In this document: in pieces, positions 6,915-13,454 of the stretch | Layout: the number at the start of each line of letters is the position of its first letter | How positions within the stretch are numbered: the stretch's first letter is position 1 | NCBI GenBank assembly: GCA_951406725.2 | Contig: OX597814.1 | Span: 24,862,001-24,926,000, forward strand | Direction of reading: 5' to 3' | Length of the DNA stretch: 64,000 bases | Source: Octopus vulgaris | Lineage: Eukaryota | Made by a program: the position numbers and the translations under genes | The notes under the pieces: model-generated | Told to the model about the DNA's origin: nothing | Seen by the model: the letters and a program-made list of their open reading frames with translations, nothing else | The model's database searches: none

Positions 6915-7345
6915 ACATCATCATCATCATCATCATCATCTTCATCATCATCATCATCATCATTATCATCATCATCATCATCATCGTTTAACGTCCGCTT
7001 TCCATGCAGGCATGGGTTGGATGGTTTGACTGAGGACTTGTGACCCAGAGGCTGCACCAGACTCAATCTGATCTGGCAAAGTTTCTGCAGCTGGATGCCC
7101 TTCCTAATGCCAACCACTCCAAGTGTGTAGTGGGTGCTTTTATGCGCCACTGGCACGAAGGCCAGTATGGTTTCTATGGCTGGATGCTCTTCCTAATGCC
7201 ACTCACTCCAAGAATCTAATGTGCTTTTTACATGCCACCAGCATGGGTGCAGGTTACATAACACCAGCATCAGCCACAACTATGCTTTCATTTGGCTTGA
7301 TGTGTCTTTTCAAGCATGGGATATCACCAAAGGTCTTGGTCACTT
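6915..7345 (-). mobile_element. RTE 3'-tail fragment(s) with a long (CAT)n tail
   Basis: (CAT)n 6915-6984 followed by CGTTTAACGTCCGCTTTCCATGC; the GCTGGATGC..TTCCTAATGCCA block occurs twice (~7090 and ~7178). Confidence 0.8.
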
Positions 7346-7386
7346 ATCACCTTATATACATACATATATATATATATAGAGAGAGA

Positions 7387-8495
7387 GAGATTGTAGAGCT
7401 GCTTGAACGGAGACGTGTGGATGTATGCTGTATCCAGGAAGTAAGGTGGAGAGGAGGTTCCGCTAGGCTCCTCACAGGCAAGGAACACAGGTACAAGATT
7501 TTCTGGGCAGGGAACACTGATGGGGTCGGGGGCGTGGGTATACTTCTTGCGGAGAAATGGGTAGGTAAGGTAATCGAGGTAGTCAGAGTAAGTGACAGAG
7601 TAATTAAAATTAGATTAGTCCTACACCATAGGACAGCTACCATCATCTCGGCATATGCCCCTCAACCAGGGCTACCGGGAGGACAAAAAGACCAATTCTA
7701 TGACACCCTATTGCGGACTACCTCGTTGACAAATGACAGTGACCTTCTCTTCGTGGCAGGTGATTTCAATGGACATGTTGGACGACATGTCGGGGGCTTC
7801 CATGGCATCCATGGAGGCTACAGTTTTGGCTCTCATAATGAGGAGGGAACCAGGCTGCTGGAGTTCTGTGATACAAATGACCTTATGGTCTGCAATACCA
7901 ACTTCAGGAAACCCACCTCTCACCTAGTCACCTACCGTTCTGGCAGACACACCAGCCAGATTGACTACATCCTTGCCATAAAAAGGGAAAGAGGGCTGAT
8001 TATAAATGCCAAAACCTTTCCAGGTGAAGAATGTACTCATCAACATAGATTAGTAGTTAGCAACTTCAGGATCAGAGCTAAATGGTTTCCCAGAAGAAGA
8101 CCAGCTTGGAGGAGAAGGGTCTGGAAGCTTAAAGATCCTGCTAATGGACAGAGATTTAGAGACATACTACTCGAAGCCTTTGACGAAATAGAAGGGGATA
8201 TAGCTTCACTTAATGTGGAAGACAACTGGAGATTCCTACGAGACAATCTGCTGACAATCTCGACCCAGAGTAACATGGTGTTGGAACACCGTGGTTGACA
8301 GGGCTATTAGACAAAAGAGACAGGCTTGGAAGGACTGGAAGAACAGTGGTAGCAGGGAATTGTATCAGACAGCCAAAAGGGAAGCTAGGAGACAGGTTTA
8401 TTTAGCCAGAGGGGAAGCGGATAAGAAAAAAATTTGCCAATGTTCTGAGCCGTGAGGATGAAAGACTTGAGGTATTTCGTGTTGCAAGACAGTGT
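7387..8495 (+). pseudogene. APE-type endonuclease and linker of the RTE ORF, frameshifted
   Basis: Motifs DVCCIQEVRW, GGVGILL, SAYAPQ, VAGDFNGHVG, SQIDYIL and HQHRLVV. The frame breaks near 8255 (apparent deletion before the RPRVTW motif) and at the A-run ~8426-8432. Confidence 0.92.
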
Positions 8496-10334
8496 GTGAG
8501 AGAGAATCGTGATGTGGTAGGAGAGAAGTGTGTTCGCATGGATGATGGTTCACTTGCGCTAAATGAGGATGCAAAGAGAGAGGTTTGGAGATGCCACTAT
8601 GAAAGGTTGTTGAATAAAGAAAATGAATGGGATAAAGAGAGTCTGCCGAATGTTGACCCAACAGAGGGACCAGCTATCCGAGTTGATAGTTCCGTGGTAG
8701 CTAAGGCAATTAGAAGCATGAAGACAGGAAAAGCCCCAGGCCCATCAGAAATTACTGCAGAGATGCTCAAAATATCTGGCAGTGTTGGCTATAACCTAGT
8801 CACCCGTATAGTCAACCAGGTGATACATGAAGGAGTCATACCCAATGACTGGTGTAGCAGCATACTAGTCAACTGCTACAAAGGTAAAGGTGATGCCCTA
8901 GATACAAATAATTACAGAGGTATCAAGCTGTTGGATCAGGTAATGAAGGTTACAGAGAGGGTCATAGCCCAACTAATTAGAGAGAGAGTTAGTTTAGATG
9001 AGATGCAGTTTGGGTTCGTGCCAGGGAAAAGCACCACTGATGCTATATTCCTGGTAAGGCAGCTGCAGGAGAAATACCTAGCCAAAGATAAGCCCCTGTA
9101 CCTGGCTTTCGTTGACATGGAGAAAGCCTTTGATAGGGTCCCCCGATCCCTCATCTGGTGCTCAATGAGGAAACTAGGGATAGATGAATGGCTGGTGAGG
9201 GCTGTGCAAGCCATGTACAGAGATGCCGTAAGTAAGGTTAGGGTTGGCAACATGTACACAGAAGAATTCAAAGTAGAGGTTGGGGTCCACCAGGGTTCAG
9301 TACTCAGCCCCCTCCTATTTATCATAGTCCTCCAGGCAATTGTGGTGGAATTCAAGACAGGTTGCCCCTGGGAGCTCCTCTATGCTGACGACCTTGCTCT
9401 AATTGCTGAGTCACTATCAGAACTGGAGGAGAAGTTCCAGGTGTGGAAGGAGGGTTTAGAATCGAGGGGCCTTAGAGTCAACCTAGCTAAAACCAAAGTA
9501 CTAATAAGTAGAAATGTAGACAATCCACAAATATCCTCAGGAAGATGGCCCTGCTCGATCTGTAGAAAAGGTGTAGGTAGAAACTCTATAAGATGTACCC
9601 AGTGTAAGCTATGGACACATAAGAGGTGCAGCAATGTCAAAGGTAGGCTAACTGGGAAGATAGTTTTTGTATGTGGCAGATGCTCGGGAGCATTGACCTC
9701 CGAAAATCTGCAGAAAACAACTTCCGTCACTTTCCAGGGGGAAAAACTAGAAGTAGTTGATAGCTTCCATTATCTTGGTGACCAAGTCAGTAGTGGGGGT
9801 GGGTGCGCTGAAAGTGTAACTGCTAGAATAAGAATAGCCTGGGCAAAGTTTAGGGAGCTCTTACCTCTGCTGGTGACTAAAGGCCTCTCGCTCAGAGTAA
9901 AAGGCAGACTGTATGATGCATGTGTACGAACTGCCATGCTACATGGCAGTGAAACATGGGCCGTGACTGCTGAGGAAATGTGTAAGCTCATGAGGAATGA
10001 AGCCAGTATGCTCCGATGGATGTGTAATGTCAGTGTACATACTCGACAGAGCGTTAGTACCTTGAGAGAAATGTTGTACCTAAGAAGCATCAGTTGTGGT
10101 GTGCAAGAGAGACGATTGCGCTGGTATGGTCATGTGGCGAGAATGGATGAAGATAGGTGTGTGAGAAAGTGCCAATCCCTAGCAGTTGAGGGAACCCGTG
10201 GAAGAGGTAGACCCAGGAAAACCTGGGACGAGGTGGTGAAGCACGACCTTAGAACATTAGGTCTCACCATGGAAATGACTAGAGACCGAGACCTATGGAA
10301 GTATGCTGTGCGTGAGAAGACCCGACAAGACTAG
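8496..10334 (+). CDS. RTE reverse transcriptase portion (open for 612 codons) with an internal PHD-like finger
   Basis: GKAPGP, YKGKGD..NYRGIKLL, QFGFVPGKSTTDAIF, AFVDMEKAFDRV, GVHQGSVLSPLLF, LLYADDL (YADD 9381-9392), YLG, HGSETW, RRLRWYGHVAR, GRPRKTW. The start codon is an artefact of the upstream frameshift. Confidence 0.95.
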   Translation: MRENRDVVGEKCVRMDDGSLALNEDAKREVWRCHYERLLNKENEWDKESLPNVDPTEGPAIRVDSSVVAKAIRSMKTGKAPGPSEITAEMLKISGSVGYNLVTRIVNQVIHEGVIPNDWCSSILVNCYKGKGDALDTNNYRGIKLLDQVMKVTERVIAQLIRERVSLDEMQFGFVPGKSTTDAIFLVRQLQEKYLAKDKPLYLAFVDMEKAFDRVPRSLIWCSMRKLGIDEWLVRAVQAMYRDAVSKVRVGNMYTEEFKVEVGVHQGSVLSPLLFIIVLQAIVVEFKTGCPWELLYADDLALIAESLSELEEKFQVWKEGLESRGLRVNLAKTKVLISRNVDNPQISSGRWPCSICRKGVGRNSIRCTQCKLWTHKRCSNVKGRLTGKIVFVCGRCSGALTSENLQKTTSVTFQGEKLEVVDSFHYLGDQVSSGGGCAESVTARIRIAWAKFRELLPLLVTKGLSLRVKGRLYDACVRTAMLHGSETWAVTAEEMCKLMRNEASMLRWMCNVSVHTRQSVSTLREMLYLRSISCGVQERRLRWYGHVARMDEDRCVRKCQSLAVEGTRGRGRPRKTWDEVVKHDLRTLGLTMEMTRDRDLWKYAVREKTRQD

Positions 10335-10934
10335 TGAAGCCATAACCCGTGGCCCCTACCTGGGACGTAGTCAGTCCACCTGCGCATACCTTCCTCCTTG
10401 TGACACTTGTGAAGACCTGTTGAGGCAAGTGAAAATCAAAATCAAATCAAATCAAACCAAATAAAAATAGATGAACATCAATGGAATTTGTATCCTTGTG
10501 GGTGGCACATAAGAAAACCATCCGAACGTGACCGTAGCCAGTACCTCATCGACTGGCCTCCATGCTGTGGGCATGTAACAAACAACATCCGAGCGTGGCC
10601 GTTCGCCAGCCTCGTCTGGCACCTGTGTCGGTGGCACATAAGAAAACACCATCCGAGCGTGGCCGTCTGCCAGCCTCGTCTGGCACCTGTGTCGGTGGCA
10701 CATAAAAACACCATCCGAGCGTGGCCGTCTGCCAGCCTCGTCTGGCACCTGTGTCGGTGGCACATAAAATCACCCACTACACTCTCGGAGTGGTTGGCGT
10801 TAGGAAGGGCATCGAGCTGTAGAAACACTGCCAGATCTGACTGGCCTGGTGCAGCCTTCGAGGTTGCCAGACCCCAGTTGAACCGTCCAACCCATGCTAG
10901 AATGGAAAGCGGACGTTAAACGATGATGATGATA

Positions 10935-11094: not shown

Positions 11095-11132
<38 letters not shown>

Positions 11133-11360
11133 ATGTATGTAAGTGTATATGTTTGTGTGTCTGTGTTTGTCTCTCCCAACATCACTTGACAACTGATGCT
11201 GGTGTGTTTACATCCCCGTAACTTAACAGTTCAGCAAAAGAGACTAATAGAATAAGTACTAGGCTTACAAAGAATAAATCCTGAGGTTGATTTGCTCGAC
11301 TAAAGGCAGTGCTCCATCATGGCTGCAGTCAAATGACTGAAACAAGTAAAAGATTAAAAT
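10935..11360 (+). mobile_element. SINE type B, full length
   Basis: tRNA-like head (GCTGTGTGGTAAG...GGTTCAGTCCC), CORE-like GGCACCTTGGGCAAG, internal (TA)n/(TG)n, 3' end GACTGAAACAAGTAAAAGA. Multiple copies in the window. Confidence 0.9.
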
Positions 11361-11399: not shown

Positions 11400-11684
11400 T
11401 CATCTCATCGTGACTGACCAGACTATCAAATGTTGCTACACATCGCTGGTCACAATGCTCTTCGCATTGTTTTAGCCTTAAAATGACGCCACCCCACTGG
11501 CTAAGCAAGCAGGCCAACAGAAGAAAGAGTGAGAGAAAGTTGTAACGAAAGAGTACAGCAGGGACCACCACCACCCCTGCCAGAGCCTCGTGGAGCTTTA
11601 GGTGTTTTTGCTCAATAAACACTCATAACACCCGGTCTGGGAATCGAAACCGCAATCCTATGACCGTGAGTCCACTGCCCTAAC
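11398..11684 (-). mobile_element. tRNA-derived SINE type C
   Basis: Minus strand reads GTTAGGGCAGTGGACTCACGGTC...GGTTTCGATTCCC (B box), followed by a ~230-bp body ending in GATGAGATGATG. Confidence 0.75.
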
Positions 11685-11755
11685 AATATATATATCGTTT
11701 GTTTAGAAACACATAAAACCAGAGAAAAAGCACACTCTAAGGAGTTGAGCAGTCT

Positions 11756-12001
11756 ATATTTACTACTGTTGAAGGCCGGTTTATAGAGTTGCCCTGGGTT
11801 TTAAGACATAAAGGGTACCTTTATAGTATATCTTCAGACCTCAAGATCTGTTGCCCTATGGCCTCTTTAAAATATGGAGCAATATTTTAAAGAGGCCATA
11901 GGCCATCAGGTCTTAGGGTCTGAAGATATACTATAAAGGTACCCTTTATGGTGAGAAACCCAGAGTAACCCTATAAACCAGCCTTCTCCAGTAATAAATA
12001 T
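11756..12001. repeat. Gapless inverted repeat, 120-bp arms, 6-nt loop
   Basis: 11756-11875 versus the reverse complement of 11882-12001: 103/120 matches by manual alignment, no indels. Confidence 0.95.
11914..11973 (+). ncRNA. Type I hammerhead-ribozyme-like motif
   Basis: Stem I TAGGGT/ACCCTA; CTGAAGA 11920-11926; stem II TACTATAAAGG/CCTTTATGGTG; GAAA 11955-11958; C-ccaga-G; triplet GTA ending at 11967. There are extra nucleotides at the base of stem II. Confidence 0.6.
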
Positions 12002-12017
12002 TCATATATATACATAT

Positions 12018-12250
12018 ATGTGTGTGTGTATGTCTTTGTATCTGTGTTTTTGTCTTCCATGCCACGCCTTTGGCCACTGCTTGACAACCAGTGTTAGTGT
12101 GTTTGCATCCCCAAAACTTAGCAGTTCAGTAATAGCAACCAATAGAATAAGTACGAGGCTTTAAAAAAATCAGTCCTGGGATTGACTCAGTTGACTAAGT
12201 GCCCCAGTATGGCCATAGTCTAATGAGTGAAACAAGTAAAATAATAAAAG
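12018..12250 (+). mobile_element. SINE type B, 3' half
   Basis: GCTTGACAACC...ATAGAATAAGTAC...GAAACAAGTAAAATAATAAAAG; likely the continuation of 6737-6895. Confidence 0.8.
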
Positions 12251-12254
12251 AATA

Positions 12255-12440
12255 CCATGTAGGGAATCATATCACTGCATATTACAAAAATCAGTGAAAG
12301 ATACTATGCCATATTATATAAGATAATAAATCACATCATCTTCACATTTGTAGTTAATTATACCATATTATATTGTATGATGTATTATGCAACTATAGTT
12401 AAATGCAGTGAACTGTTTCACAATGTATCATATAAATAAG
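12255..12440. repeat. Degenerate ~31-32-bp minisatellite, piece 3
   Basis: GTAGGGAATCATATCACTGCATATTA and GTAGTTAATTATACCATATTATATTGTAT; same unit as pieces 1 and 2. Confidence 0.5.
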
Positions 12441-13454
12441 TGAGTTAGTTCATCCTGTTTTACCACTTGAGTAATAAGCCATCAAAGAAGTTTCTATGGA
12501 GTTGCTTGATCTGCTAGTAATAGCCACCAAACTTTAGTAAAAAATGGGTACATAAGATGTGAGCCTGAATATGCTGTATATGAAAAAACAAACCAAAGAA
12601 AAAATAGGTGTTTGTCACAGCTAGAATTCCTTTTGGTCTGCTTCATCAAAGCTGTTCTGGGGCTAAACAATAAGAGCAACTGCCTAAATATTGCCTGTAC
12701 CCTAGTGATATGATTACCTTTGCTCTGGTTACTCTATAGTCAACTAAATCAACCTCAGTACTTGACTGCATTTTATTTAATCAGCTTTGGTGTATACAAG
12801 GTGAATTCCCCACCACAACCACCTGCAAAGAAGAATTTGAACTCAGACCATAAAATCTGATAATTAAATAGCATAAAAGATTCTTTGCTATACTCTACCA
12901 TTTCTACTGGCTTTAGTGCCCAAAATAATATAATAAACATCACATAGAGTTGTAGCCACAGTAATTTACTGAAACAATATCTATGAATCATCATCATCAC
13001 CACATCATCATCACCATCATCCTCATCATCATCATCATCACCATCATCATTATCCTCATCCTCATCATCATTGTTGTTTTACATCTGCTTTCCATGTTGG
13101 CATGGGTTGGATGGGTTGCCATAATCAGAGTCTGCATATATTCAATAATAAACTGCATAGTCCTACACTGCAGAATATTATGCATACAAGATTCTGTCTT
13201 AGTTATAATGGTGTAACTGACATTATCAGACATTCTCTATCTCTTAAATAAGAAAATAAGAAAATAAAGAAAAAAAAGCATTTTTATTAATATAGATGTC
13301 ATTATGTACTTTCTTGTTGCATATTTTCATGGCAGCAAACTTAATTTAAACTTGACATGACTTAGCTCTAAAAAGTTGTTTTTTTTTTCTTCTTACTTAA
13401 GTTTTTCTTTCCTTCCCATTTTTTCTGCTACAAATATATTATTATTGTCTGCGA

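Follow-up and report, generated by a model that had tools for sequence, protein, structure and literature searches.

A hairpin with opposite-strand hammerhead motifs in the Octopus vulgaris genome is very probably a head-to-head pair of truncated Penelope-like element ends

The hairpin unit at positions 11690-12001 of the window, the 64,000-nt stretch of Octopus vulgaris contig OX597814.1 analysed here, very probably (about 93%) consists of two 5'-truncated 3' ends of a Penelope-like element (PLE), lying head to head between short TA tracts; they are likely the product of one insertion and have likely undergone neutral decay since. A decayed inverted PLE end was one of the two options left by the preliminary description, and it is borne out by three features: the same ends flank PLE open reading frames, the tail is confined to one of the two arms, and insertion was into a target of the TA type. 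Head-to-head PLE stumps with hammerheads on opposite strands have already been published; only the family was not previously found described. A literature search that had Repbase and Dfam outside its scope found no paper describing the family, and the words "hammerhead" and "ribozyme" occur 0 times in PMC13282606. The single locus matters little, being one of many aged PLE footprints.

The features of the hairpin are collected in Table 1. Its two arms (11756-11875 and 11882-12001) are 120 nt long each, are separated by a 6-nt loop and are identical at 103/120 positions with 0 gaps, which reproduces the values first reported; the same holds for the longest perfect block between the arms, 34 bp at 11917-11950. 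The (TA)n tracts described on both sides are indeed present, if short at about 4-5 units, with imperfections in the one on the right; the boundary between the left tract and the element is ambiguous by a few bases. The tail lies outside the inverted repeat and is matched in other copies (query positions 1-66). Folded as RNA, the hairpin has a stability of -172 kcal/mol (z -19.5), which is reached by 0/100 shuffles. The arm identity of 0.845 is close to the median of 0.848 across 53 pairs of the family, and a perfect block of at least 34 bp is found in 5/53 of these pairs; the p value for the 34-bp block is 0.04 when 17 scattered changes are assumed and 0.11 when a run of five adjacent changes is counted as one event, as it probably was. 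This run, which includes the lesion in GAAA, is the sole real mismatch cluster. The concentration of mismatches in the ribozyme that had been claimed earlier could not be recovered, since no enrichment is present either in the 60 hammerhead columns (of 120), which hold 10/17 mismatches (p=0.30), or at the 12 core positions, which hold 2/17 against 1.7 expected (p=0.53). The majority sequence of the subfamily differs from the left arm at 14 and from the right arm at 8 of 103 columns. Three of them are common to both arms, at 11929, 11930, 11932 and their mirror positions in the left arm, where 1.3 are expected; they would derive either from a variant source RNA or from local conversion.

Table 1. 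Features of the hairpin and its junctions, in window coordinates
Feature	Position	Strand	Basis or detail
(TA)n tract, left junction, likely target site	11686..11695	.	sequence; family ends abut TA tracts
Tail of about 60 nt, 3' extension of the element, on one arm only	11696..11755	-	matches in other copies
Long arm, 5'-truncated PLE 3' end, sense on the minus strand	11756..11879	-	family comparison
Decayed hammerhead, long arm	11784..11843	-	G12A and U16.1C; one mismatch in stem I and three pairs lost at the base of stem II
Head-to-head junction/loop	11876..11881	.	mostly four more long-arm bases plus 1-2 extra bases
Short arm, 5'-truncated PLE 3' end without tail	11882..12001	+	family comparison
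Type I hammerhead motif, core intact	11914..11973	+	descriptor search, pairing analysis
Imperfect TA tract, right junction, running into a copy of another repeat	12003..12020	.	sequence

The stump is found among other repeats. A LINE-type element occupies window positions 7108-10334 on the plus strand, with open frames of 396 and 642 aa in which Exo_endo_phos (Pfam, E 2e-9), RVT_1 (E 4e-32) and a PHD-like finger are recognised. A 62-nt unit is repeated three times in tandem (94-100% alike) within a longer repeat at 10579-10766, and a very high-copy short repeat lies directly left of the stump at 11410-11685, with a summed contig depth far above that of the hairpin in four runs. Diverged copies of another short repeat (11113-11359 and 12008-12249, 76-81% alike over matched blocks), which start in TA/TG tracts, flank the stump about 890 bp apart.

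The assignment to PLEs comes from the other copies of the family in the same genome, for which 91 matches were obtained from the best 40 of 1485 first-look candidates. At two loci, L031 and L077, the same ends flank, in inverted arrangement, a decayed ORF for reverse transcriptase (RT) and GIY-YIG that aligns to most of a 717-aa RT + GIY-YIG protein (P0001), and at two others, L042 and L043, they follow endonuclease remnants. In the longer copies the hammerhead is on the sense strand, roughly 200-300 nt past the end of the ORF. The window copy contains no ORF by tblastn, so its membership of the PLEs rests on the similarity of its end DNA (about 80%). In protein searches, P0001 gives a weak match to the Pfam GIY-YIG model, below the cut-off (E 0.013), five fragments of L031 gave no relevant Pfam match, and a homolog search with P0001 returned 837 matches with no informative name among the 120 listed.

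The clade was assigned by motifs, not by a tree, using the definitions of RWK, DKT, CxCX5C, CxxC and CxH for the Hydra clade in the passages of PMC8557442, section 11, drawn on here. RWK and DKT are intact in L076 (end match 73%) and read KWK and NKT in L031; the CxCX5C linker is found in L031, L072 and L076, and CxxC and CxH also occur in family copies. By these motifs the family would belong to the Hydra clade. The Neptune clade had also been considered as identity and was dropped for Hydra on the motif evidence. The RT stretch of L031 is identical to that of Hydra-1_Obim at 106/146 residues, as counted by hand. The portion of the PMC8557442 supplement consulted contains 0 matches to the helix III motif of the family, which on sequence grounds is thus a family separate from Hydra-1_Obim.

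The short, hairpin-shaped, non-coding, TA-flanked and repeated unit could also suggest a DNA transposon of the MITE or foldback type, with the motif present by chance in its terminal inverted repeats. However, its ends correspond to the 3' UTR of an RT-encoding element, one end is about 60 nt longer than the repeat, and both junctions and lengths differ at every locus; a transposon of this kind is the least probable of all the readings considered.

The arrangement of the arms was compared among copies by a profile search that yielded 95 distinct loci with 151 near-complete arms, with the 12 loci of a younger family (L058-L069) left out; the arms were drawn from the top-scoring 40 candidates per search and are not a random sample. 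The tail of about 60 nt is present on exactly one arm in 53/57 head-to-head pairs and on neither arm in the remaining 4/57. The window obeys this rule, with the tail on its left arm; the right arm was classed as short by hand, because its local alignment ran into the TA/GT-rich flank. Both arms belong to the same subfamily in 51/53 pairs, and TA-type flanks are present at most family copies. Junctions vary by locus and lengths vary widely, with 29/48 long ends below about 220 nt. When a single arm was used as query, a full partner arm was found within 20 nt in 3/40 scored long arms, and a partial partner at 3 more of the 40, the locus of the query itself included.

As to where the long arms stop, 12/30 end within 18 nt of the position of the window junction. 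With tail-only queries, for which 48/60 loci were kept after dropping those sharing 40-mers (a few of the dropped ones being possibly distinct), long-arm ends are scattered over columns 96 to 1 and only mildly more frequent near the window junction, where 19 nt hold 7 ends and the following 30 nt hold 3. Heavy truncation would suffice to explain these positions, without a fixed truncation site (run-off cDNA). Changes common to both arms are more numerous than expected, at 75 vs 40 in tight pairs (n=36) and 24 vs 14 in spaced ones (n=14). Gene conversion between arms was considered for this excess and rejected, as the excess is about equal in spaced pairs, so that unresolved source lineages explain it. 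Six long arms on different contigs (L202, L207, L209, L212, L214 and L236) have a common 3' flank and an extent of about 490 nt, which suggests that one insertion probably spread inside another repeat.

The pair may have been formed by steps that are modelled on the in-vitro study of Poseidon from Anolis, as given in the passages of PMC11167929 used here. The element endonuclease would nick both strands of an AT-rich target; reverse transcription would then start at two sites about 60 nt apart on uncut RNA, generating one cDNA with and one without the tail; both cDNAs would stop early and host repair would join their ends. The arms extend about 35 and 95 nt beyond the predicted cut site, which fits an uncut RNA template. 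In the same genome, a young related PLE is likewise inverted and flanked by TA, and one of its ends is shorter than the other. The long/short pattern of the 53/57 pairs would extend the model of two start sites separated by a tail to a family of the Hydra type, whose tail is longer.

A different route to the same structure, which would leave the identity of the element unchanged, is fold-back synthesis, where a single cDNA, AT-rich and partly palindromic at its end, would have folded over there and served as its own template. In its favour, a short AT-rich palindrome at which the arms overlap forms the centre of many tight junctions, and the arms often end at similar depth (e.g. L204, L211, L240, L249). 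Conversely, in L189, L194, L197 and L213 the start of the partner arm lies 60-80 nt 3' of the point where the long arm ends, in L015, L031 and L077 one arm is longer than the other by hundreds to thousands of bases, and the short arm ends at the same family position across pairs, a constancy that fits a second fixed start site. Fold-back is considered unlikely, while being the one competitor with an appreciable chance, and the joining of two independently primed cDNAs is the route preferred here.

The young PLE is represented by L058:1209-8446 (C5:53449708-53456945) and L059-L069, with a unit of about 2.58 kb, copies about 98-100% alike and, in L058, identical frames for the 717-aa RT + GIY-YIG protein (P0001), organised in tandem and inverted arrays ending in (TA)n. 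Its copies terminate in TA, on one side at a short site and on the other side farther along. A search with the 3' end of this family, in which common words are skipped, gave no matches. Its hammerhead-like motif has a 4-bp palindrome around a 1-nt loop, N7 as A or T and, in the copies inspected, C in place of U4; a U4C variant of a viroid with reduced in-vitro activity is described in the consulted part of PMC3088659. An older relative of the young family has its end at L013:1400-1490, where, as judged by eye, it directly adjoins a hairpin of the present family at the same TA tract. The young PLE is a good candidate for cleavage testing and for the study of junction formation.

The type I hammerhead layout proposed for the right arm was confirmed. 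It includes a 6-bp stem I (11914-11919/11968-11973), CTGAAGA at 11920-11926, an 11-bp stem II with two G·U pairs and a 3-nt loop (11929-11939/11943-11953), GAAA at 11955-11958 and the triplet GTA at 11965-11967; if the motif were active, the cut is predicted 3' of 11967. According to the type I descriptor it is the only motif of this type on both strands of the 64-kb window. The earlier account of the left arm was equally accurate: on the minus strand CTGAAGA is kept, AAAA and GCA take the place of GAAA and GTA, and stem I is damaged by one A·C mismatch and contains two G·U pairs. The core CUGANGA / GAAA / NUH with stems I and II is found in the right arm and in the four subfamily majorities, and it is lost in the left arm. 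The G10.1-C11.1 pair that closes stem II is absent, the family having two bases after A9 and one before GAAA. Rfam returned nothing at the gathering threshold for the hairpin, the best match being mir-9261 with 41 bits vs 86, and no hammerhead model is among the 32 matches at E up to 10.

The right arm is affected outside the core, where a G>A change at 11964 breaks its palindromic helix III by a C·A mismatch; the computed self-duplex of the helix III 9-mer is +1.1 kcal/mol, vs -11.6 kcal/mol for the subfamily majority. Both motifs at this locus are probably inactive, the left one by its core changes and the right one by loss of the dimer helix and, in any read-through transcript, by its pairing to the left arm, as judged from these pairing models. 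The right arm could still pair in trans with an intact family copy, with one mismatch.

Comparison among copies indicates what the motif may have been in the source elements. The arms can be divided into four subfamilies of 67, 29, 26 and 23, with 6 arms in none and a mean divergence of 9.5% from their own majority. None of the four majorities has lost any of the 20 pairs, any of the 11 core bases or the NUH triplet. The fully intact motif is found in 6/151 arms, and among copies the core columns are kept no better than the other columns of the arm alignment, from which insertion columns were left out. The majorities differ at N7 (A/T/C), at one loop II base and by a purine swap beside GAAA; stem I has changes from A-U to G-C and from G-C to G-U to A-U, and in helix III a C-G pair changes to U-A across the 1-nt loop. 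The structure survives random placement of 5, 6 and 9 changes in 1.0%, 0.4% and 0.03% of trials, respectively, under a null that is simple and with compensatory changes that stand for a handful of ancestral events, not for 151 independent ones.

Since the C-G to U-A pair of helix III is impossible within one molecule, it points to a dimer, and the compensatory stem changes, together with the variation at N7 among subfamilies, suggest that the motif was a selected hammerhead, probably dimeric. Thus, the sequences indicate that the hammerhead was probably under selection in active source elements, where it would cut as a dimer through the palindromic helix III; the compensatory change across a 1-nt loop represents sequence evidence for dimeric hammerhead action. 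According to the parts of PMC4209133 and of the review PMC6765202 drawn on here, PLE hammerheads depend on dimers and have low activity. Mutual information was also considered as proof of the structure and was rejected, because all subfamily-diagnostic columns covary.

The other option of the preliminary description was a non-coding element, whose upstream antisense arm would switch the ribozyme off and yield a dsRNA rod suited to ADAR. The left arm is instead the sense 3' end of the element itself, on the minus strand, and a sharing of the arm asymmetry among copies, which the preliminary description had proposed as a genome-wide check, was not borne out in the 53 long/short pairs. In these the core is intact in both arms of 9, in the long arm only of 12, in the short arm only of 16 and in neither of 16 (exact p=0.57; Wilcoxon p=0.70), and the corresponding numbers in 39 tight hairpins are 6, 9, 11 and 13. 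Core loss is therefore without arm bias and damage is random among copies, one of the outcomes that the preliminary description had named as refuting, so the idea of a designed switch fails; the heavier damage of the left arm is likely the result of random ageing, not a built-in off switch. Against this reading, the changes in the left arm outnumber those in the right, its two lesions co-occur on one other long arm, at L005, and G12A is found on 6 long and 3 short arms.

Regarding the rod, the predicted pairing of stem I is 0.997 in the arm alone and 0.000 within the hairpin; if the locus were read through, formation of the rod would prevail over that of the hammerhead, as in any inverted duplication. 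The A-C mismatches that had been proposed as suited to ADAR are no commoner than G·U ones, with 5 A·C and 5 G·U appositions between the arms, types that swap on the opposite strand. No excess of A>G over T>C is present in 145 arms (87/3717 vs 55/2443, p=0.86), and this equality indicates that the copies carry no ADAR footprint. With CpG and subfamily-diagnostic columns set aside, G>A is more frequent than C>T on the sense strand of the same 145 arms (208/2525 vs 174/2865, p=0.002), possibly from hidden ancestral CpG sites or unresolved lineages.

Public sequencing runs give little on transcription: 19 are listed for 11690-12001, of which 1 has part of it and none is recorded as RNA. In run X1, of unrecorded type, a 180-base contig spans the left junction with 5 differences. 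Three runs guessed to be RNA (X2, X5 and X6) have hairpin traces only, the listed piece having 7 differing letters, and leave 12260-12459 uncovered, and four others guessed to be RNA (X3, X4, X7 and X8) have no contigs on 12230-12960; from neither result does it follow that the locus is silent.

A non-coding switch, co-opted or purpose-built, in which the upstream arm masks an active ribozyme and the rod is edited by ADAR, would agree with the intact core of the right arm, with the very high stability of the rod and with the X1 contig across the left junction. It is contradicted by an arm asymmetry that is not common to copies, by the broken helix III palindrome of the right arm, by A·C and G·U numbers as transitions would give and by the missing A>G excess, and it appears very improbable. 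Only a little less remote is the co-option of a stump, whose 120-bp read-through rod would mask the ribozyme and be edited or diced, while RNA starting between the arms would free a hammerhead cutting as a heterodimer together with intact copies of the family. If transcribed, such stumps would supply ready-made dsRNA, and if co-option were true, fold-back stumps, which are probably numerous in the genome, would be sources of dsRNA similar to Alu, in an animal group known for heavy RNA editing. The reading as an aged pair of PLE ends is the one retained.

The window family can be compared with known systems through the passages of each source drawn on here. Hydra-clade PLEs, which have a C-terminal endonuclease (Craig et al. 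2021, PMC8557442), contain the same RWK, DKT, CxCX5C, CxxC and CxH motifs and target (TA)n; their hammerheads are located close to the 3' end, and helix III is a 4-bp palindrome with a 1-nt loop, as in the window family. The published Hydra motifs commonly have additional bases following A9 and preceding GAA, like those of the window family, and several of these motifs depart from the canonical stem II junction. For Penelope-13_HM, the same source has a copy that is inverted and 5'-truncated, so that the motif occurs on both strands, as at the present locus. Differences are also evident: Hydra-1_Obim of Octopus bimaculoides has another hammerhead sequence, whereas stem II of the window family is longer (10-11 bp), and the published one-sided tail is 30-40 bp, vs about 60 nt here.

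The minimal, dimeric metazoan PLE hammerheads (Cervera and De la Pena 2014, PMC4209133) are of type I with a long helix II, an unpaired base after position 9 and a palindromic helix III, as in the window family; conversely, G10.1-C11.1 is highly conserved in them and absent here. Opposite-strand hammerheads found close together were ascribed in that work to truncated PLEs, with a spacing of about 100-700 bp, while the cores in the window are about 80 bp apart. For Poseidon of Anolis (Frangieh et al. 2024, PMC11167929) an AT-rich target is cut and extended on both strands, the tail is the distance between two RT start sites and the template is uncut RNA; Poseidon, however, belongs to another clade, its ORF begins inside the hammerhead and its tail is 30-40 bp. 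Finally, non-LTR retrozymes (bioRxiv 10.64898/2026.07.22.740005) are also non-coding, carry a type I hammerhead and are related to PLEs, but their units, each of which has its own motif, are repeated directly in tandem; direct tandem repeats of the family are absent from the window, whose two family matches lie on opposite strands and form an inverted pair made of the truncated ends of a coding element.
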